Notes: generated from the letters alone by a model not told the origin. A stretch of DNA of 64,000 nt from Kiritimatiellales bacterium (GCA_021734345.1 JAIPJC010000001.1:15734-79733); one strand, 5' to 3'. Positions 37,864 through 47,421 are shown, counted from the first letter of the stretch. Numbers and translations: made by a program.

Positions 37864-39546
37864 TCACCAGCGGTAGGTCAGGCCCGAGTCGATGTAGAGT
37901 GCCTGTACCGAAGTGCCAAAGCTTTCGGAAACCTGCACATTGGCACTCCATTTTCTAGAGATCAGCCAGTCGACCAGCAACGACGCATCCGATAGGTCAA
38001 GGGAATCCACTCCGCCGTTTTCATCGTACGTTCGGAAGCCCACCGAGGGCTGGAACGACAGGCGGGACTGCATCACGGGGAAGTAGCCATAGAGGCGTAC
38101 GCCGTATCCCTTGGAGTAGCTGCTTTCCATATTGTACACGGTCATGGACAGACTACTGTTCTTGAGATCGAAGAAACCACGGCGAGTGATGCCCAACCGC
38201 CAAAGCGGCGTCATGCTGTAGTTTTCGCCTTCGAGGAATGACACCTCCTCGTCGAAAGTCAGGTTTCCGGGAACGCGTTGTGCGCTGCCAATCGAATAGC
38301 GCCAGTAGCCATCGTCCAGCGGCAGGGAATTGGTCGGCGCGGCGTAGACGGCGCGTTCGGCGGCGGTGTCGGGTTGCTGGTAGTGGTCGACTCCGGTGCG
38401 AAAGCTCAGCACCTTGTTGACGGGCGCATTGGCATGCAGGTTCAACCGGGTCAGCGAAGCCCCGTCGCGCTCCTCGGCACCACCGGCGTCGATATCGACT
38501 TCGCTGGAGGAATAGAGGTTCAAATGCGGACCAAGCGTCGCCGTCTGGTCGAGCAGCACCGCGAGCCGGTCGAAGCTCCCTTGATAGGCCGAGCCAAGCA
38601 CGCCGAGCGTTCCGGAGTAGTAGAGTCGTTGCATCTCGCCAGCCTGGAATGTTCCATACGCCACCGCGGTGGGCTCGTCGGTTGTGAACTCCAGATCGTA
38701 GCGATCCGGCTTCAGGCCCGCCATTCCACCCACTCGTACGTTCTTATTGAGGACAACCTCGGCCTGGGCACCATCCAGATAGCCAACCGATGGCAGTTCC
38801 AAGGGAAGGAAACGGCCGGCACGCACAAAGCTTCCACCATCGAATCTACGGAACAGGCTCAATTGCCGCAGATCGAGCCTCGGCTCCTGATAGTATCGGC
38901 TATTGCTCAATCCATCCCCGCTCCGATAGGACAGGTTGGCGTTCCAATCCACCGCCCAAGGCGTACCGTTGATGCGTTCCAAACTACCCGCCGTGCCGAC
39001 GCGGCTCAGGGAATAATCGGCGAGCTGCTCCTGCTCCATTTGCAGCGATTGACGCATCCAGATACGTCCATGGAAAATATTGGAGGGATCGTTGACGTTG
39101 ACCGACCGTTCCCGCATCGGTGCCAGCAACGGAACAAACGGCTCGGTTGCGGCGTCCGGGTTCTTCAGGGTGGAAGAGGATGACGCAGGCTTCTCCGTTA
39201 CGGCAGCCTCTTCCACATCGAACACGACCTTATCACCCACTTGCGGCACCTCGCCCTGCCACACGGTCAGCACTTGGAGCAAGGCCGAACTACCCGAAAC
39301 CGTGGAGACTTGCACCGTGCCGATCATCGCCTCGCCGCGCAAAATCCGTCCGCGGGTTCCCGAAGTCAACCCGGCCGCGCGGCCCACGTCCACATACACG
39401 CCGTCGACGGTCCGTTGCACGATGCTCGCTTCTACCTGCCGCGTTTCGGAACGGACCGTCCCGGCACAGACCAACACGAGCACGATCAACGCGATGCACC
39501 ATCTACCCCGCAAACTGGAACGTTGGTTCAACATAATCATCCTCAT
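37864..39546 (-). CDS. probable outer-membrane beta-barrel (porin) with a small N-terminal beta domain
   Basis: Signal peptide, alternating amphipathic beta strands over ~400 aa, terminal aromatic GLTYRW. ATGA-coupled to the 31-heme gene. Confidence 0.7.
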   Translation of the reverse strand: MRMIMLNQRSSLRGRWCIALIVLVLVCAGTVRSETRQVEASIVQRTVDGVYVDVGRAAGLTSGTRGRILRGEAMIGTVQVSTVSGSSALLQVLTVWQGEVPQVGDKVVFDVEEAAVTEKPASSSSTLKNPDAATEPFVPLLAPMRERSVNVNDPSNIFHGRIWMRQSLQMEQEQLADYSLSRVGTAGSLERINGTPWAVDWNANLSYRSGDGLSNSRYYQEPRLDLRQLSLFRRFDGGSFVRAGRFLPLELPSVGYLDGAQAEVVLNKNVRVGGMAGLKPDRYDLEFTTDEPTAVAYGTFQAGEMQRLYYSGTLGVLGSAYQGSFDRLAVLLDQTATLGPHLNLYSSSEVDIDAGGAEERDGASLTRLNLHANAPVNKVLSFRTGVDHYQQPDTAAERAVYAAPTNSLPLDDGYWRYSIGSAQRVPGNLTFDEEVSFLEGENYSMTPLWRLGITRRGFFDLKNSSLSMTVYNMESSYSKGYGVRLYGYFPVMQSRLSFQPSVGFRTYDENGGVDSLDLSDASLLVDWLISRKWSANVQVSESFGTSVQALYIDSGLTYRW

Positions 39547-41834
39547 TCCCTGCCGTTGGGATGGCACCGGTAGCATGCAGCGGAGTCGTAGGTGTAGTTG
39601 CTTACGCCGCTGTGGTGCGAATCCGTGTTGGATTTGGAATGGCAACTATTCAAGCACGTGAAGGTGGAGGTGCTTCCTCCCAGATGGCAGGTCGTGCAAC
39701 TTACATTGTGGTTTCCGGTCAAGGGGAATTGGTGATTGAACGTCGCACCCAGCCACGTCGTCGTGGTGTGGCATCCCAGGCAGTCATGCGAGAAACCCGA
39801 CGAGACATGGTTCGGAGCACTTTGGTAGTTGCTCTGATGGCAGGAATAGCAATCCGAAGGAATGGTTCCGACCGTGCCGGACTTATGGCATTGCACGCAG
39901 TCCAATCCACTGTGCCCAGCCGTCAGCGGGAAGAAGCTGTGGTCAATCGTGGCGCCAGGCCAACCGGAAGTTGTGTGGCATTGCAGGCAATCATGCGAGA
40001 AGCCCGCCGAGAGATGGTTCGGAGCGCTTTGGTAGTTGCTCTGGTGGCAGGAATAGCAATCCGAAGGAATGGTTCCGACATTGCCGGACGTGTGGCATTG
40101 CACGCAGTCCAGCCCGCTGTGCCCGGCCGTCAGCGGGAAGAAGCTGTGGTCAATAATGGCGCCGTCCCAACCTGTCATCTTGTGGCACTGTAGGCAATCG
40201 TGCGAGAAATTCGATGCGACATGGCTCGGCGCGCTTTGGTAGTTGCCCTGGTGGCAGGAATAGCAATCCGAAGGAATGGTCCCGACCGTGCCGGACGTGT
40301 GGCATTGCACGCAGTCCAATCCATTGTGCCCGGCCGTTAGCGGGAAGAAGCTGTGGTCGATCGTGGCACCGGTCCAACTGGACATCGTGTGGCATTGCAG
40401 GCAATCCAGCGAGAAGTGCGATGCCGCGTGGTTCGGTGCGCTTTGATAGTTGCTCTGGTGGCAGGAGTAGCAATCCGAAGGAATGGTTCCGACATTGCCG
40501 GACGTGTGGCATTGCGTGCAGTCCAGCCCGCTGTGCCCGGCCGTCAGCGGGAAGAAGCTATGATCGACAATGGCATTCTCCCAACCCGCCGTGCTGTGGC
40601 ACCGCTGGCACTCCACCGAGAAGCCTGACGAGACGTGGTTCGGGGCGGTCTGGTACTTGTCGTTATGGCAGGAGTTGCAGTCCGAAGGTACGGATCCGAG
40701 GCTTCCGGACGTGTGGCATTGCGAGCAACTCAGCCCGCTGTGCCCAGCCGTCAAGGGGAAGGCGGCCGTGTGGCTGAAGTTGACCTGATCCCAGTTGTTG
40801 ACCGTGTGGCATTGCAAGCAATCCGTCGGGAAGCCCGACGCAACATGACTCGGTGCAGCCTGGTAATCAGGCTGATGGCAGGAATTGCAATCCGGAGTCA
40901 AGGATTCATAGTTGCCGGGGACATGGCATTGCGTGCAGTCCAATCCAGTATGACCGCCATTCAACGGGAAAAAGCTGTGGTTGAAGTTGGCTTGATCCCA
41001 TCCGTTGATGGTGTGGCACTGCTGGCAATCCGTCCAGCCGTTTGCCACATGGTTCGGGGCGTTCAGATATTTGTCGTTATGGCAGGATTGGCAGTCGGAA
41101 GGAATGGGTTCGAACGTTCCCGTGGTATGGCATGCCACGCAAGCCACACCGCTATGCTCGCCGCTCAAGGGGAAAAAGCTGTGGTTGAAATTGGCCTGGT
41201 CCCATCCAGCCTGCGAATGGCATTGCTGGCATTCCGTCGAGAACCCCGTGTGGTTCGGGGCGCTGTTGTAGTCCTTCTGGTGGCAGGAATAGCATTGGGT
41301 CGGTGCGCCCATGTAGAAATTCACGGGAGCGCGGGGATGGCAGCTTTCGCATGCGGTCACCGCATGGATGCCGATCAACGGGAAGCGGGTGCCCGCGTGT
41401 TCGGCCACCAACCCCTGCGGCCGCCAGTTCATTTGCGAATGGCATTGATCACAGGAGAGTCCCAGGCTTCCGGCGTGCGGATCCACGTGGCAACCGGAGC
41501 ATCCCCGCGCCACATAGGCTTCAACCGGGCCGCGGTCGTTGTGGCACCGCAGGCAGGCAGCGTCCGCATGTGCGCCTTCAAGTGGATAGCCGGTCTCCTT
41601 TTCGTGGTCGTAGGAAAAATCCTTCTTCAGCACGCTCCAACTCTCAGGCACGTGGCACAGGCTGCAATCGCCCGGAAAGGTTTTATGGGGCACCATGGGT
41701 CCCCACTTCTTGCTCCATCCCTGCGGCGGCACGATAAAGTGGCAACTCGCCATCAGCACAACCAGGCCGGCCAGCAACAGCGAGGGCAGAAACGGCACCA
41801 TCCGCTTCAACGTTCTAGGGATATTTGAGTCCAT
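39543..41834 (-). CDS. multiheme c-type cytochrome lipoprotein (30 CxxCH + 1 CxxxCH)
   Basis: Start MDSNIP (41834), lipobox-like LMASC, heme motifs counted manually, tandem triheme repeats. Confidence 0.92.
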   Translation of the reverse strand: MDSNIPRTLKRMVPFLPSLLLAGLVVLMASCHFIVPPQGWSKKWGPMVPHKTFPGDCSLCHVPESWSVLKKDFSYDHEKETGYPLEGAHADAACLRCHNDRGPVEAYVARGCSGCHVDPHAGSLGLSCDQCHSQMNWRPQGLVAEHAGTRFPLIGIHAVTACESCHPRAPVNFYMGAPTQCYSCHQKDYNSAPNHTGFSTECQQCHSQAGWDQANFNHSFFPLSGEHSGVACVACHTTGTFEPIPSDCQSCHNDKYLNAPNHVANGWTDCQQCHTINGWDQANFNHSFFPLNGGHTGLDCTQCHVPGNYESLTPDCNSCHQPDYQAAPSHVASGFPTDCLQCHTVNNWDQVNFSHTAAFPLTAGHSGLSCSQCHTSGSLGSVPSDCNSCHNDKYQTAPNHVSSGFSVECQRCHSTAGWENAIVDHSFFPLTAGHSGLDCTQCHTSGNVGTIPSDCYSCHQSNYQSAPNHAASHFSLDCLQCHTMSSWTGATIDHSFFPLTAGHNGLDCVQCHTSGTVGTIPSDCYSCHQGNYQSAPSHVASNFSHDCLQCHKMTGWDGAIIDHSFFPLTAGHSGLDCVQCHTSGNVGTIPSDCYSCHQSNYQSAPNHLSAGFSHDCLQCHTTSGWPGATIDHSFFPLTAGHSGLDCVQCHKSGTVGTIPSDCYSCHQSNYQSAPNHVSSGFSHDCLGCHTTTTWLGATFNHQFPLTGNHNVSCTTCHLGGSTSTFTCLNSCHSKSNTDSHHSGVSNYTYDSAACYRCHPNGRE
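39730..41190 (-). repeat. coding tandem repeat, ~207-bp (69-aa) triheme unit, about 7 copies
   Basis: GAAGAAGC anchors at 39930, 40137, 40344 and 40551. Unit HSFFPLTAGH.GLDC.QCH...DCYSCH...PNH...DC..CH. Confidence 0.9.
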
Positions 41835-43557
41835 GGCAATCCTTGCATTGTTTTCCGAGAGGTTTGTACTGAACCACCGTCTTGTTTTCCGGCACCGCGA
41901 CGGTCGGATGGCACTTGGCGCAGGCCACCTTTGCATGCACACCGTCGAGGGCGAAGCCCGACTGGCTGTTGTGGTCGAACCCCATGGCGCGCCAACTGTC
42001 GGTCGAAGTGTGGCAGCTTTGGCACTGAGACTCGCCGTTCGCAGACGCGAACTGGCCGCGATGCACATCCTGATGGCAGTCGGCGCACGTCTTCGAGGCA
42101 CCCTTGTAGCGAACCACCCCGTCGTCTGCCGGGCGGTGGCACTGCTGGCACTCGGCACGGGCATGCCCACCGGTCAGTGGATATTTGGCGAGGCGGGCAT
42201 GGTCGTAGGGTCGGATAATGAAGGTCTCAGTGCCGGCGGTATGGCAAACCGTGCAATCGTTCTGCGCGAGCTCAGCCACAAACTGGGTGCCATGCGGATC
42301 GGTGTGGCACTGCTTGCATGCGGTGGTGGTTCCCGCGAATTGCACCACGTCGGAGTCCGCCGGCTTACGGTGGCAGGCCATGCACGGTACGGCGCCGTGC
42401 GCCCCTTGCAACGGATATTTTTTCGCATGCTGCGCGAGGCTGAATCGATGCGGCTTGAACTCGAGTGGTGTATGGCAATCCTGGCAACCGATATAGCGCC
42501 CGGCAAACTGGCCTTCATGAATATCCTTGTGGCATCCCTGGCAGCTGCCCGGCTGACGCAGATAGTCCGGACTTGCCGGGTCAGGATATTTCTCGGCGAA
42601 GGGGAGGTCGGGCGTATGGCACTTGGCGCAGTCCACCTTTTGGTGGGGGGCGATCAACGGGAAGCCGGTCAAGGCATGTTTCTCCGGCGACAACGGCGCC
42701 GTCTGTTCGTTCCAATGCTTGGCCGTTTCACTATGGCAATCCAGGCATTGGTTGCCAAAGGGCGCGCGATGGGGTGTGGCGTGGCATTCCGCGCAGGTCT
42801 TCCCTTTCACTTTTCCAAAGGCCAGTTTCCTCAAGGCTTCCTGTTCCGGCAGGACGGCCGGCGCTTCCGGAATAACATGGCAACCGTTGCAAGCCACCCG
42901 TTCATGCGGCCCTTCGAGCTTGAAGTGTTTTGAATGGTCGAAGTTGACGGCTGGCCGGAAGGTATCCTGGCTATGGCATTCCTGGCACTTTTGGGATAGC
43001 CCGCCCGAGTGGACATCCTTGTGGCACTGGACGCAATCCTGCGACAGGCCGAGGAAGGTGTGTTCCCGCTCAAACTTTTCGAACTTGGGCAAGGTGACCG
43101 GCCCGGAATATTCCGTGCGGTGGCACTTTTCGCAAGCCAGCGGATCGTGGCGGCCATACAGGTCGAATGCGGCGATGTGGGGATGGCTGAATCCATTGGT
43201 TCCGGTGGTGCCCCATGATTGCCGGTTGACGAGTTCGAAGTCCGCGCCCAAATGTTCGGAATGGCAGGTTTGGCAACCCGGCGATCCTTCTTTCTTCAAC
43301 AGGTAGGGATGGAATCCTTCACCGGTTGCAAGTTGGTTCCGTATCTCTGCATGGCAGGAAAGGCATCCCGTATCGAAACCCCCTTCATTATGGCATTGGG
43401 CGCAGCCGGACAAGCGGTTCAGTTGCTTGATCTGCGCGTGCGGTGCCGCCAATGGGCCGGGCATGGGCTGCCGAAGCGCCAGATATCCGGCAATCGCCAA
43501 AACGGCCAATGTGCCGACGACCAGCAGCGTCCGGGGATGGAGGAGTATGTTTTTCAT
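41815..43557 (-). CDS. multiheme c-type cytochrome (20 CxxCH) with an N-terminal membrane anchor/signal
   Basis: Start MKNILL (43557, ATGA overlap), 20 CxxCH counted, H..F.L.G.H..C..CH triheme-like units. Confidence 0.92.
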   Translation of the reverse strand: MKNILLHPRTLLVVGTLAVLAIAGYLALRQPMPGPLAAPHAQIKQLNRLSGCAQCHNEGGFDTGCLSCHAEIRNQLATGEGFHPYLLKKEGSPGCQTCHSEHLGADFELVNRQSWGTTGTNGFSHPHIAAFDLYGRHDPLACEKCHRTEYSGPVTLPKFEKFEREHTFLGLSQDCVQCHKDVHSGGLSQKCQECHSQDTFRPAVNFDHSKHFKLEGPHERVACNGCHVIPEAPAVLPEQEALRKLAFGKVKGKTCAECHATPHRAPFGNQCLDCHSETAKHWNEQTAPLSPEKHALTGFPLIAPHQKVDCAKCHTPDLPFAEKYPDPASPDYLRQPGSCQGCHKDIHEGQFAGRYIGCQDCHTPLEFKPHRFSLAQHAKKYPLQGAHGAVPCMACHRKPADSDVVQFAGTTTACKQCHTDPHGTQFVAELAQNDCTVCHTAGTETFIIRPYDHARLAKYPLTGGHARAECQQCHRPADDGVVRYKGASKTCADCHQDVHRGQFASANGESQCQSCHTSTDSWRAMGFDHNSQSGFALDGVHAKVACAKCHPTVAVPENKTVVQYKPLGKQCKDCHGLKYP

Positions 43558-44441
43558 GACTGGATGATCCACAGGCTTCCAAACCGGAATGCCAGAAGAA
43601 TGTGGAAGCCCACCACAAGAAACAACACCACGGCCAGCCAGCGGTGGAAGAAGCGCCAAGCCCCCATCAGTTCGCGCAGCTCATGGTAGCGCACCAGCCA
43701 TTGGCGCTCCCGGCAGAGCTTGTGCAGCAGGTCGTGGATCTCCTTGGATTTGGCGGAATCGGCCTGCTTCTCGCTCATGCGTTTCTGCAACTGGTGGAAT
43801 TGGCGATGGGCTTCGCGATCCCCCTGCAGCATATGGCGCAAGGCCGACAGAATTCCAACTTTCCCGTTTTCCTCCGCATCCGTGCTGGATTCGTATTTCA
43901 AACTGGTTGGATCCACGCCCAACACTTCCAGCGCTTCGCGGTATTCCACCAGCCGGCGGCGAACCTCGCCGATCTCCAACTCCCGGCCGTGATAGGAGCG
44001 TGGCACGTGGATGTAGATATAGCGCCCCATGACGCCCGTCGCGACGACGATGAACATGGCGATCAGCGCCAGCTTTCCCAAGGAACTCGAAGGAGCAAAC
44101 GCCGTATGCAGCACGATCAGGCTGGGTCCCAGCAGTCCGGTCAGCACATGGAAGTTCATCCACTTGCGCAACGAACCTAGCCATGCAATGGAAATGAGCC
44201 GCTTGCGAACCAAATACGTCAGGTTGAGCAGCATCAGCGCTGTGCCGGCCAATCCGATAGACAGTCCAACACTGCCGGATGAGCGCAAGGCTGCATGGCG
44301 CACGTCGAAGGGGCGTTCAGCCGGCGACAAGCCATAATACGACCAATGGAACGCCAGATAGCCTGCAAGGCCGAACGCCAGCCCTATGCCTAGAAGGAGG
44401 GCCATGCTGGTTGGCTGCGGTTTGGAAGCGGAGTCCATCAT
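43554..44441 (-). CDS. polytopic inner-membrane protein, ferric-reductase/cytochrome-b-like
   Basis: About five TM helices with four His in membrane segments (WMNFHVLTG, IVLHT, WRFFHRW, VGFHIL). Confidence 0.7.
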   Translation of the reverse strand: MMDSASKPQPTSMALLLGIGLAFGLAGYLAFHWSYYGLSPAERPFDVRHAALRSSGSVGLSIGLAGTALMLLNLTYLVRKRLISIAWLGSLRKWMNFHVLTGLLGPSLIVLHTAFAPSSSLGKLALIAMFIVVATGVMGRYIYIHVPRSYHGRELEIGEVRRRLVEYREALEVLGVDPTSLKYESSTDAEENGKVGILSALRHMLQGDREAHRQFHQLQKRMSEKQADSAKSKEIHDLLHKLCRERQWLVRYHELRELMGAWRFFHRWLAVVLFLVVGFHILLAFRFGSLWIIQS

Positions 44442-45790
44442 CAGACCGCCTTCAGTAATTCGGAAGCGCTATTTTCATGGGGCGTCTCGCCATGGAAGCG
44501 GATGCCGCAACTACGCAGCAAGGGATAGGGAGGTTCGCCGCCAGCCAGAACAAACACATAGTCGTTGGGCAGGTTTATTTCCTGCGGTTCCGAATCGGCA
44601 TCGATGACCAAGTTGACTTGGTCGGCTTCGATGCGGCCGACACCGGAAGAGAAATAGGCTTTGATGCGGCCATCGGCCAAATAGCGTCCGATGCGTTCTT
44701 CGTTGCGGGGCTTCAAACGGAAGAAACCGGACTTGCGATACGACAATACCACCTCGTTGCCGGATTGCTCGGCCAAGGCCATGGCTGTTTCCACGGCACT
44801 ATCCCCTCCCCCTACAACTAGGATGCGCTGTCCCATGTAGGTGGCGGCATCGACCAACTGGTAGAGTACCTTCTCTGATTCTTCGCCGGGTACGTTCAAT
44901 TTCCGTGGAGTACCGCGCCGACCCAGAGCCAGCAGGACGAACCGCGATTCAACCGGTCCCGCCGTGGTTTGGGAAACAAAATAATGGCCACGGTGCTCGA
45001 CCGTAGTCAGGCCCACACCTGTCTGAATCTTGACTCCATGGGTTTCGATCACTTCATCCCAAATCGCAACAAGCTCTTCCTTCACGTATTGCGTCTTCTT
45101 CAAATACCCATGGAGAGGAAGCTGCATCGGCTGGGTCATGGCCAGCTTGCGACGCGGATATTTGCGCACACTGCCCCCCGCGTCGTCCTGGCTAATGGTT
45201 GCATACGTCAGGTTGCATTCGATGGCTTTCAACGACGCCGCGATTCCCGCCGGGCCCGCCCCGACAATCAGCACATCGACCATGCCATCGAACCGGTTGG
45301 ACAACCCCGACACGCGGCGGGCGATCGCCTCCACCGCTTTCACCCCGTCCTCGACCGCATTCCTGATCAGGGCGATCCCGCTCAATTCACCCGCGATGAA
45401 CAACCCCGGAACGGATGTTTCCAGATCGTCGGAAAGCACTGGGATATCGGTCCGGGTGGAAAGGTCTCCCAAACCAACCTTGAGTGCACCGACCGGACAG
45501 GCGATTTCGCAGTGCGAGTGTCCCACGCAGCGGGAGGCATGTATGACATGCGCGATGCCGTCGACAAGTCCGATGACGCCCGATTCGGGGCACGCCGCAA
45601 TACAGCTTCCACAACCAATGCACTGGAGAGGATCGATATGGGGATGTTGCGTCAGCCCCTTATTGGTTCCGCGCGTGCGGGAATCCCGGATGTCCGCAAT
45701 GGTTTGCTCGGTCAACCGGCGATGTATCGCCCGTTGCCATAGCCCCAAGAAAACAAGCAAGCCCCCCAATATAGTAAGCGTCCAAAACAT
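44441..45790 (-). CDS. membrane-anchored ferredoxin-domain + thioredoxin-reductase-like FAD/NAD(P)H oxidoreductase
   Basis: N-terminal TM, CIGCGSCIAACP and CVGHSHCEIACP, VGAGPAG (FAD), VVGGGDSA + SYRK (NADPH-type). No redox CxxC in the flavin domain. Confidence 0.88.
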   Translation of the reverse strand: MFWTLTILGGLLVFLGLWQRAIHRRLTEQTIADIRDSRTRGTNKGLTQHPHIDPLQCIGCGSCIAACPESGVIGLVDGIAHVIHASRCVGHSHCEIACPVGALKVGLGDLSTRTDIPVLSDDLETSVPGLFIAGELSGIALIRNAVEDGVKAVEAIARRVSGLSNRFDGMVDVLIVGAGPAGIAASLKAIECNLTYATISQDDAGGSVRKYPRRKLAMTQPMQLPLHGYLKKTQYVKEELVAIWDEVIETHGVKIQTGVGLTTVEHRGHYFVSQTTAGPVESRFVLLALGRRGTPRKLNVPGEESEKVLYQLVDAATYMGQRILVVGGGDSAVETAMALAEQSGNEVVLSYRKSGFFRLKPRNEERIGRYLADGRIKAYFSSGVGRIEADQVNLVIDADSEPQEINLPNDYVFVLAGGEPPYPLLRSCGIRFHGETPHENSASELLKAV

Positions 45791-45991: not shown

Positions 45992-46633
45992 ATGATCATA
46001 TACGACAACATCTCCATCCGGATCCACCGGCAGGAACTCTTCAAAAAAGTATCGATCCACCTTGCAGCGGGCGACAAGTTTGTCCTATGCGGAGCTTCGG
46101 GAAGTGGAAAAAGCTCGTTGCTCAAATGCACGGTCGGGGCGCTTCCGATCTCGGAAGGATCAATTCATGTCGCCGGTATGGAGCTTTCGGCCTCCACTGT
46201 TTCCGAAATCCGCGCGCGCGTTGCGTTTATCGGTCAGGAACCCGTACTGGGCGCGGCCACCGTGCGCGAGGCTGTTTTGCTCCCCTTTTCCTTCAAAACG
46301 CATCGCCACCATTCACCGGACGAAGCACGCATACAGGAACTTGCAGGGCGCCTTCACCTTCCCATGGATATCCTCGCCAAGCCCTGCGCCCGGATCTCCG
46401 GCGGGGAAAAACAGCGCATCGCCTTGCTCCGCGCGCTGTTGCTCGACAAGACTATTTTCCTCGCCGACGAGGTCACCTCCGCGCTCGATCCCGAGAGCAA
46501 GCAGGCCGTCATGGCCGAACTCTTTCGTCCGGAGATCACCCTGCTTTCCGTCTCGCACGATCCGGAGTGGGTCGGTGCCTGCAACCACATCGTCGAAGTT
46601 GCCGATGGCCAACTCAAGGAGAAGACTGGATGA
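45992..46633 (+). CDS. ABC transporter ATP-binding protein (FetA/YbbL-like)
   Basis: GASGSGKS, ISGGEKQR, DEVTSALD, SHD. Confidence 0.85.
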   Translation: MIIYDNISIRIHRQELFKKVSIHLAAGDKFVLCGASGSGKSSLLKCTVGALPISEGSIHVAGMELSASTVSEIRARVAFIGQEPVLGAATVREAVLLPFSFKTHRHHSPDEARIQELAGRLHLPMDILAKPCARISGGEKQRIALLRALLLDKTIFLADEVTSALDPESKQAVMAELFRPEITLLSVSHDPEWVGACNHIVEVADGQLKEKTG

Positions 46634-47421
46634 CCGCCGACCTTTCCATTCCGGCCATGCTGGCGATGTACGCGCTCATGCTGGTTCCTCTGGCGATTTC
46701 CTTCCATCTCCAGCTCGGAATCGTCCGTGAAACATTGCTGTCGCTGGTCCGCATGACCATCCAATTGCTGCTTGTCGGGCTATACCTCAAATACATCTTC
46801 CAGCTCAACAACCTCTTGGTCAGCCTCTTGTGGCTTGTCGTCATGCTGGTCGTCGCAAACGTCAGTATTCTCAACAAGGCCGGACTCAAGCGCCGCCTAT
46901 TTTTCTGGCGTTCACTGGCCGGGGTGGCCGCCAGCACCATGCTCGCCAGCGGCTGGTTCATTCTCGTCGCCATCCGTCCCGATCCTATCTACGACGCGCG
47001 CTACCTGATTCCAATCACGGGCATGATTCTAGGGAATTGTCTACGCGGAAACGTGCTGAGCCTAGAACGATTCTATAGCGGCATTCGCAAAAATGAGAAT
47101 GAGTTTGTGACCTATCTGCTACTCGGCGCCTCTCTTCGCGAAGCCGTCCGCCCCTATCTGCGCGACGCCGTCAAGGCTTCCATCAATCCCTCGATCGCCA
47201 CCATGGCCACCATGGGCATCGTCTCCCTGCCAGGCATGATGACCGGCCAGATCCTCGGCGGCGCAATGCCCATCACCGCCATCAAATACCAGATCGGCAT
47301 CATGATCTGCATCTTCGTTGCCATGGCGGTCGCCGCGTTGATGAACATCCTGCTTAGTCTGCCCATCGCCTTCGACGACCACCAACGACTGCGTCCGGAT
47401 ATTTTTTGCAACAAAACATAG
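46630..47421 (+). CDS. ABC permease, UPF0014 (FetB/YbbM-like)
   Basis: RMTIQL, IPITGMILGN, VSLPGMMTGQILGG, AIKYQI. ATGA-coupled. Confidence 0.88.
   Translation: MTADLSIPAMLAMYALMLVPLAISFHLQLGIVRETLLSLVRMTIQLLLVGLYLKYIFQLNNLLVSLLWLVVMLVVANVSILNKAGLKRRLFFWRSLAGVAASTMLASGWFILVAIRPDPIYDARYLIPITGMILGNCLRGNVLSLERFYSGIRKNENEFVTYLLLGASLREAVRPYLRDAVKASINPSIATMATMGIVSLPGMMTGQILGGAMPITAIKYQIGIMICIFVAMAVAALMNILLSLPIAFDDHQRLRPDIFCNKT

Follow-up and report, generated by a model that had tools for sequence, protein, structure and literature searches.

The porin-cytochrome cluster PCC3 was first described bioinformatically in 2017, in Fe(II) oxidizers and other Proteobacteria (He, Barco, Emerson and Roden; PMC5566968). 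It combines a porin with two cytochromes, one periplasmic (median 21 hemes) and one described as 'extracellular' (median 34 hemes), and with an inner-membrane protein (IMP) of about 300 amino acids (PMC5566968); the supplement of that paper lists 'four component genes', in Proteobacteria only. The IMP was described as a five-helix protein in which helices 3 and 5 each carry the motif WX3HX13H and helix 4 carries SGXXG; it was likened to ferric-reductase domains, yet it was drawn as a quinone-active cytochrome b (PMC5566968). PCC3 was met again in the Gallionellaceae pangenome, where the periplasmic cytochrome has 21, 24 or 27 hemes (PMC9900912), and has since been called widespread, genome-predicted and of untested function (bioRxiv 10.1101/2025.02.27.639646). 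Its genes nevertheless serve as candidate iron-oxidation markers, though no component has been experimentally characterized. Here, we analyzed a stretch of 64,000 nucleotides derived from lake-water metagenomes and assigned to a Kiritimatiellales bacterium (GCA_021734345.1, JAIPJC010000001.1:15734-79733; hereafter the window, numbered from its first letter), in which a five-gene operon encodes a membrane-anchored Fe-S/FAD flavoprotein (OXR), an IMP, a 20-heme cytochrome, a 31-heme lipoprotein cytochrome and an outer-membrane barrel. On balance, we read this cluster as a version of PCC3 from the Planctomycetota-Verrucomicrobiota-Chlamydiota (PVC) lineage, arranged as one operon together with a conserved flavoprotein partner.

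All five minus-strand open reading frames (ORFs) were verified within positions 37864-45790, as follows.

44441..45790, minus strand: OXR gene, Fe-S/FAD flavoprotein of 449 amino acids
43554..44441, minus strand: IMP gene, membrane protein of 295 amino acids with five helices
41815..43557, minus strand: 20-heme cytochrome gene, coupled start at 43557
39543..41834, minus strand: 31-heme lipoprotein cytochrome gene, coupled start at 41834
37864..39546, minus strand: outer-membrane barrel gene, coupled start at 39546
39766..40761, minus strand: tandem array within the 31-heme gene (Tandem Repeats Finder)

The OXR and IMP genes meet in TGATG at 44441, where stop and start share one base, and the IMP stop lies over the start of the 20-heme gene in ATGA at 43554-43557. 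The two cytochrome genes overlap by 20 bp (41815-41834), if the 31-heme protein starts at Met113 of its long ORF, and ATGA recurs at 39543-39546 between the 31-heme and barrel genes. For three of the genes the longest ORF is too long, and the true starts likely lie inside it, at 43557, 41834 and 39546. No promoter- or terminator-like signal rose above shuffled sequence. Twenty CXXCH motifs in the third gene, with 30 CXXCH and one CX3CH in the fourth, give 51 heme motifs. A preliminary description of this locus had proposed five coupled genes, about 51 c-type hemes and a gene order that follows a path leading from cytoplasm to outer membrane; the ORFs and all four junctions bear out the coupling, the motif count agrees with the heme number, and the products, their order and their predicted topology are all compatible with such a path. 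It had also regarded the architecture as unknown, which has to be withdrawn, as the core of IMP, roughly 20-heme cytochrome, giant cytochrome and barrel is that of PCC3 (PMC5566968, PMC9900912).

The likeness to PCC3 begins with the IMP. The window protein has five hydrophobic segments, two WX3HX13H motifs on helices 3 and 5 (W94/H98/H112, WMNFH..13..H; W262/H266/H280, WRFFH..13..H) and S/T-G-x-x-G on helix 4 (TGVMG at residue 135, with T for the S of the published SGXXG), in agreement with the published definition, and a profile of its family matches the IMPs of about 300 amino acids in Gammaproteobacteria loci, assigned to PCC3 by their layout, at E values of 1e-20 to 1e-32. The inner cytochrome carries 20 CXXCH motifs (17-26 in PVC homologues) against about 21 published, and aligns with proteobacterial 21-heme proteins at BLAST E values of 1e-50 to 1e-70 and roughly 30% identity. 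Ahead of the first heme both inner cytochromes contain P-G-x-L/V-x3-H-A: in the window and its homologues this is P-G-P-L-x3-H-A, preceded by a hydrophobic N-terminal helix that is likewise kept, and in the proteobacterial 21-heme proteins it is the related M-P-G-x-V/L-x3-H-A. The outer cytochrome is built from a triheme repeat of 69 amino acids and has 31 motifs against a median of 34. The gene order is that of the proteobacterial loci that we fetched, with the predicted outer-membrane barrel standing where those loci have a barrel-sized frame.

By contrast, the published cluster comprises four genes, in Proteobacteria, with a quinone-coupled model, whereas the window operon includes OXR. Where PCC3 has a cleavable signal peptide, the inner cytochrome of the window keeps its N-terminal helix; the window's outer cytochrome is a lipoprotein, and its barrel protein has 560 amino acids compared with proteobacterial frames of about 690-1000. 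A hidden Markov model of the PVC barrel family found no match at E<0.01 in the proteobacterial PCC3-layout loci, and the barrel C-termini (..GLTYRW in the window, ..GYRWDF in Proteobacteria) have only a G-Y/T-R-W motif in common. The PCC3 core is of a known kind; what this locus adds is the operonic, sometimes fused flavoprotein input and the apparent transfer into a fermentative PVC lineage. In an incomplete literature search, we found no paper linking an OXR-type flavoprotein with porin-cytochrome clusters, and none linking PCC3 with Planctomycetota or Pontiella with extracellular electron transfer. The verrucomicrobial porin-cytochrome clusters (He et al. 2017, mSphere, PMC5615132) were considered as a match and set aside; they have 8-heme periplasmic cytochromes and form a separate system.

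Better-known conduits are more distant. As in MtrCAB, OmaB-OmbB-OmcB and Ext, genes for a periplasmic multiheme cytochrome, an outer-membrane barrel and a lipoprotein outer cytochrome stand side by side, and electron transfer across the outer membrane is presumed. However, both window cytochromes reach just 43 bits on the MtrA/DmsE model TIGR03508 (cut-off 192) and thus fall outside that family, the barrel has 22 strands in its model where MtrB has 26, and the heme numbers are two to three times higher than in MtrCAB or the Geobacter conduits. MtrB was not among the 50 matches listed in either barrel fold search, which by itself speaks neither for nor against a relationship. The inner-membrane partner also differs from CymA, ImcH and CbcL in being neither a NapC/NirT-type nor a CbcL-type quinol dehydrogenase, and none of the five operon proteins matched NapC/NirT. 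The earlier statement that no CymA/ImcH/CbcL-type protein is recognizable therefore stands for the cluster but not for the genome, in which contig C29 encodes CbcL-like and NapC/NirT-like proteins.

The association of OXR with this core is conserved. When species-representative genomes were scanned with the IMP alignment, 46 loci emerged, mostly from Planctomycetota and five from Pontiella or Verrucomicrobiota; locus L036, which is cut downstream, was left out of the judgement on OXR. About 38 Planctomycetota/Verrucomicrobiota loci include OXR in the cluster. In about 30 the order OXR, IMP, 17-26-heme cytochrome, 7-28-heme cytochrome and barrel is colinear; five further loci have OXR behind the barrel, and one has it on the opposite strand. 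The co-conservation for which a synteny search had been proposed is thus seen in dozens of loci. In Gammaproteobacteria, the IMP profile detected a relative in 62 of 400 sampled genomes. Twenty of these loci were fetched, with an IMP of about 300 amino acids, a 21- or 24-heme cytochrome, a 15-69-heme cytochrome and a frame of 690-1000 amino acids ending in ..GYRWDF; in 15 of the 20, all of PCC3 layout, IMP has an OXR homologue beside it (38-47% identity, E about 1e-100), mostly in divergent orientation. Because OXR shares the cluster in PVC loci and adjoins IMP in Gammaproteobacteria loci, the flavoprotein is, as judged from gene neighborhoods, a conserved PCC3 partner in at least two phyla.

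The two proteins also occur as natural fusions. Five loci encode OXR and IMP in one open frame (757-921 codons from stop to stop), with the OXR part N-terminal. An exhaustive profile search returned 3660 cluster representatives of the IMP family, 393 of them at E<=1e-30; among the best 150, about 17 are long forms of 730-850 amino acids in which IMP is C-terminal. Pyr_redox_3 was found N-terminal to IMP in 8 of 10 long forms sampled, accompanied by Fer4 in four of these eight, the other four of which look partial. That such fusions occur argues that OXR and IMP function as one unit.

Several minor observations concern the same families. Locus L024 in Planctomycetota (L024:9983-11726) has the flank without OXR: its IMP lacks the first ~83 residues, its 11-heme cytochrome corresponds to the C-terminal half of the 20-heme family, and no barrel is present, so that it looks like a remnant of the cluster. 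One library protein of 838 amino acids (P0320) joins in one frame part of the flavoprotein, IMP and a cytochrome c7-type region, and could be a triple fusion or a miscalled gene. Many Planctomycetota IMPs bear an acidic, proline-rich N-terminal extension of 100-200 amino acids with a conserved P-I/V-V-I/L-L-P-D-D, which is absent from the window IMP. In nine proteobacterial loci (L071, L075-L078, L080 and L082-L084; e.g. L077:11865-13859) a conserved Sel1/ankyrin-repeat protein of 665-950 amino acids follows OXR, or precedes it in L080, and no counterpart was seen in the PVC operons. Locus L049, from a metagenome-assembled genome (MAG) labeled Gammaproteobacteria, was rejected as a further example: all it contains is the C-terminal part of an IMP that lacks the last His, and it has no cytochromes. 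In that MAG, three PVC-type IMP fragments, unaccompanied by cytochromes, lie at or near contig ends and may represent bin contamination or a decayed copy.

OXR begins with one hydrophobic helix and a stretch of basic residues, and continues with a ferredoxin domain for two clusters and a TrxR-fold FAD/NAD(P)H flavoprotein domain (Pfam: Pyr_redox_3 at 1e-38, and Fer4 families). Because basic residues come after the helix, the bulk of the protein is predicted to be cytoplasmic. The nearest NCBIfam models are YpdA/TrxR, far under cut-off, and all NCBIfam cut-offs are missed by far, so OXR belongs to no named enzyme family. Both dinucleotide motifs are present (GAGPAG and GGGDSA, the second followed by an invariant SYR) and suggest NADPH as the donor; a redox CxxC is absent. 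The first Fe-S motif is CxxCxxCxxxCP, whereas in the second, C-x2-H-x2-C-x3-CP (residues 87-98; window 45497-45532), His replaces the second Cys, which suggests a His-ligated 4Fe-4S or a 3Fe-4S cluster beside the membrane partner. This His is the majority residue among homologues rather than an invariant one, with Val in its place in one fused homologue.

In the IMP, W94, H98, H112, W262, H266 and H280 are invariant among 30 homologues. The family has weak Pfam matches to DUF4405 (18 of the 30), Ferric_reduct (11 of the 30, E<=0.01) and Ni_hydr_CYTB (10 of the 30); the window protein itself does not match Ferric_reduct (PF01794) and reaches 17.5 bits against Ni_hydr_CYTB, where the cut-off is 30.1. 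By the positive-inside rule, the N-terminus, the basic loop between transmembrane helices 2 and 3 and the charged, helical loop of 124 amino acids between helices 4 and 5 are predicted to be cytoplasmic, which would therefore put H98/H266 by the inner membrane face and H112/H280 by the outer face. This is the His geometry of a diheme transmembrane relay, and we regard IMP as a putative diheme cytochrome b. Its AlphaFold2 model (pLDDT 82.7) returned nothing at E<=0.001 in a Foldseek search of the PDB, and a wide VIA-align search gave only generic helical bundles (Z<=10.8), with NOX, MsrQ and cytochrome b relatives not among the matches listed.

The 20-heme cytochrome belongs by Pfam to the Cytochrome_C7 and c3 families, and its N-terminal helix is probably an inner-membrane anchor. 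The 31-heme protein has a signal peptide ending at Cys (LMAS-C); a Cys at this position and W-G-P-L-V-P-H are kept in homologues carrying 7 to 28 hemes. The tandem array in its gene consists of a 207-bp unit (69 amino acids, three hemes) in 4.8 copies with 82% matches. The last protein of the operon has a signal peptide, a small N-terminal beta domain, a disordered linker and a predicted 22-strand beta-barrel that spans residues 157-559 of the AlphaFold2 model (pLDDT 84). In Foldseek and VIA-align searches, this model resembled outer-membrane barrels, including 22-strand TonB-dependent transporters, at Z 15-18. The protein belongs to no Pfam or NCBIfam family, and nearly all of its 72 database homologues come from Planctomycetota MAGs.

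These data accord with the products first assigned to the five genes. Fer4, Pyr_redox_3 and the single N-terminal helix support a membrane-anchored Fe-S and FAD/NAD(P)H oxidoreductase; the paired WX3HX13H motifs with their four invariant His support a cytochrome-b-like membrane protein; the motif counts and the Cys-ending signal peptide support a 20-heme cytochrome and a 31-heme lipoprotein; and the 22-strand model with its fold matches points to a beta-barrel encoded at 37864.

Our preferred reading, held with moderate confidence, is that OXR and IMP form an NOX-like entry module through which electrons pass from NAD(P)H to FAD, the Fe-S clusters, two b-hemes, the 51-heme chain and an acceptor outside the cell. 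OXR, tethered to the cytoplasmic face of the membrane, would take hydride from NAD(P)H onto FAD and pass single electrons through its two Fe-S clusters to the cytoplasmic-side b-heme of IMP (His98/His266), from which they would cross the membrane to the outer b-heme (His112/His280). They would then enter the inner-membrane-anchored 20-heme cytochrome, whose length would suffice to span the periplasm and which would meet the 31-heme lipoprotein at or inside the 22-strand barrel, and the chain would reduce something outside the cell, for example Fe(III)/Mn(IV) minerals, humic quinones or a partner cell. A fermenter would thereby be rid of reducing equivalents, with OXR-IMP acting as a split NADPH oxidase or ferric reductase. 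From the sequences and models we infer cofactor binding, the NAD(P)H donor, the outward direction, the bypass of quinones, surface exposure and the acceptor.

A direct OXR-IMP partnership is supported, at the level of genes and predicted topology, by the fusions, by adjacency in two phyla and by matching topology: OXR and His98/His266 are predicted on the same cytoplasmic side, and the order of OXR then IMP in the fusions agrees with this. A complex prediction of OXR, IMP and two hemes scored 0.28, where the mark is 0.32, and is given no weight for or against the pairing. Electrons that leave NAD(P)H (-320 mV) for the outside run downhill, with help from the membrane potential, and these thermodynamics would favor the outward direction. 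The scheme resembles NOX/FRE enzymes and MsrQ-Fre, in which electrons move from NAD(P)H via flavin and two stacked b-hemes to an acceptor on the far side of the membrane. The hemes are held by His pairs spaced 13 residues apart on two helices, and split as well as fused forms exist, as in the OXR-IMP family. In contrast to those enzymes, the window flavoprotein combines a TrxR fold with a two-cluster ferredoxin instead of an FNR-type domain and lies N-terminal to the membrane part in fusions, the IMP has five helices and a family with only sub-threshold Ferric_reduct matches, and the acceptor would be a cytochrome c chain rather than oxygen, an Fe(III) chelate or MsrP. By analogy, then, the likeness to the NOX/ferric reductase superfamily is one of mechanism, not of family membership. 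In the flavin-based extracellular electron transfer of Listeria (Ndh2, DMK [demethylmenaquinone], EetA/EetB and PplA), a monoderm uses a dedicated quinone and flavinylated proteins, with no cytochromes or barrel; there too a dedicated NAD(P)H-oxidizing enzyme sends fermentative reducing power to extracellular acceptors.

Several points weigh against the NAD(P)H-driven entry module. All members of the family are known from their sequences. The enzymes nearest to OXR are YpdA/TrxR disulfide reductases, and its donor or acceptor might be a thiol or ferredoxin instead of NAD(P)H. The IMP model has no recognizable solved relative, and the putative diheme-b assignment draws on motifs and sub-threshold Pfam matches. 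Quinol could also feed the periplasmic cytochromes, because the host genome contains MqnA/D (of the futalosine menaquinone pathway), a NuoD homologue and cytochrome bd, in addition to the CbcL-like and NapC/NirT-like proteins of contig C29. Finally, PCC3 was first noted in Fe(II) oxidizers, with inward flow assumed (PMC5566968).

The alternative that survives best, although we consider it unlikely, is the published PCC3 model, in which IMP is a quinol/quinone-active cytochrome b linking the chain to menaquinone and OXR is an accessory, engaged for instance in local reduction of the quinone pool or in upkeep or regulation of the complex, and not the obligate entry point. Quinone coupling was proposed by He et al. 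in 2017 from the likeness of IMP to cytochrome b subunits (PMC5566968), and the menaquinone synthesis genes and other quinone-linked enzymes of the host, as well as the weak family matches to the quinone-reactive Ni_hydr_CYTB, are in its favor; an argument for quinone independence from missing quinones was accordingly rejected, since MqnA/D are present. However, no quinone site is recognizable, and the recurrent OXR-IMP fusions and the adjacency in two phyla are predicted by a direct partnership and hard to explain for an accessory enzyme.

A conduit running inward, in which Fe(II), reduced humics, a cathode or a partner cell would supply the electrons with which OXR reduces NAD(P)+ or another cytoplasmic acceptor, we regard as improbable. 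PCC3 is common in Fe(II)-oxidizing Gallionellaceae and Leptothrix, the IMP gene of one PCC3 copy in Sideroxydans CL21 is upregulated during iron oxidation, and multiheme chains are reversible in principle. Against this, reduction of NAD(P)+ (-320 mV) by Fe(II) or humics would be uphill, inward electrons would oppose the membrane potential, and no proton-coupling element is evident in the five-helix diheme protein. Pontiella are anaerobic sugar fermenters, and such fermenters need electron sinks, not donors. No less improbable is a chain that ends short of the exterior and either stores electrons in the periplasm or reduces a periplasmic or cell-surface substrate, for example oxygen, peroxide or an oxidized envelope component, with the barrel as a transport or anchoring protein instead of a heme sheath: surface exposure of the 31-heme protein is a prediction, the barrel model is like 22-strand transporters with an N-terminal domain, and MsrQ and other bacterial FRD-type proteins supply repair enzymes of the periplasm, but the genes for the barrel and the lipoprotein cytochrome are translationally coupled and are conserved together in nearly every locus, a hallmark of porin-cytochrome systems, and 51 hemes far exceed the needs of a periplasmic relay.

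If the NAD(P)H-driven entry module is right, it would constitute a route of extracellular electron transfer that skips the quinone pool and would extend mineral and humic reduction to fermentative PVC bacteria of anoxic lake water. More tentatively, OXR with a diheme-b IMP may be a general quinone-independent entry module of PCC3 across Planctomycetota, Verrucomicrobiota/Kiritimatiellia and Proteobacteria, whether split, divergent or fused. In that case PCC3 would serve chiefly to export electrons from NAD(P)H ('NOX wired to a cytochrome cable') and not to oxidize Fe(II), the reading of its genes as iron-oxidation markers would change, and anaerobic polysaccharide fermenters such as Pontiella would possess a respiratory-like electron sink. 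The conserved, sometimes fused flavoprotein partner offers a concrete, falsifiable mechanism, and the window supplies a compact case, all in one operon and apparently transferred, from a Pontiella-like genome.

The host is, by its LeuB sequence, a Pontiella-like member of Kiritimatiellia, since the window LeuB is 94% identical to that of a Pontiella sp. MAG and only 36-42% identical to Planctomycetota LeuB. Among 401 sampled genomes of the host phylum, the barrel profile gave strong matches only in the host genome and one other of the same genus; five more rows were marginal, partial matches (about 25-28 bits), and seven other members of the genus had none. The other Pontiella/Verrucomicrobiota copies are 44-54% identical to the window in OXR and IMP and 35-38% in the barrel. 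In a tree of OXR and IMP they form a well-supported clade of their own, while the window copy lies among Planctomycetota rows. Forcing the window and the Pontiella/Verrucomicrobiota rows to be monophyletic was rejected (log-likelihood lower by 113.5; approximately unbiased test, p 0.0002), in a test whose group was set by taxonomy and run after the tree had been viewed. This rejection argues for an independent acquisition of the window copy, apparently by transfer. When the flanks were compared with a Pontiella MAG, only leuB (84% DNA identity) and one neighboring gene were shared, synteny being otherwise lost, and no clean empty insertion site was definable relative to that MAG.

Elsewhere, the host genome contains a cytochrome c assembly gene, a point in favor of the entry-module reading; MenA was not found in it, and no heme-copper oxidase was found in this MAG, which is 85% complete. 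Contig C29 (L088:1-13536) carries a second multiheme cytochrome island. It encodes an 11-heme cytochrome fused to a b561-type/Ni_hydr_CYTB domain (the CbcL-like protein), the NapC/NirT-like protein with 6 hemes, a cytochrome of at least 19 hemes that the contig end cuts off, a 9-heme protein with TSP3 repeats, a protein of 457 amino acids of no family beside a 12-heme cytochrome, and hemA. This island looks like a quinol-linked electron-transfer locus.

Divergent to OXR in the window, a gene at 46087-47421 on the plus strand encodes a protein with a UPF0014 domain (PF03649, E 1e-74), the mark of the YbbM/FetB-type family of putative iron-export permeases. A tie of this neighbor to iron handling is possible.

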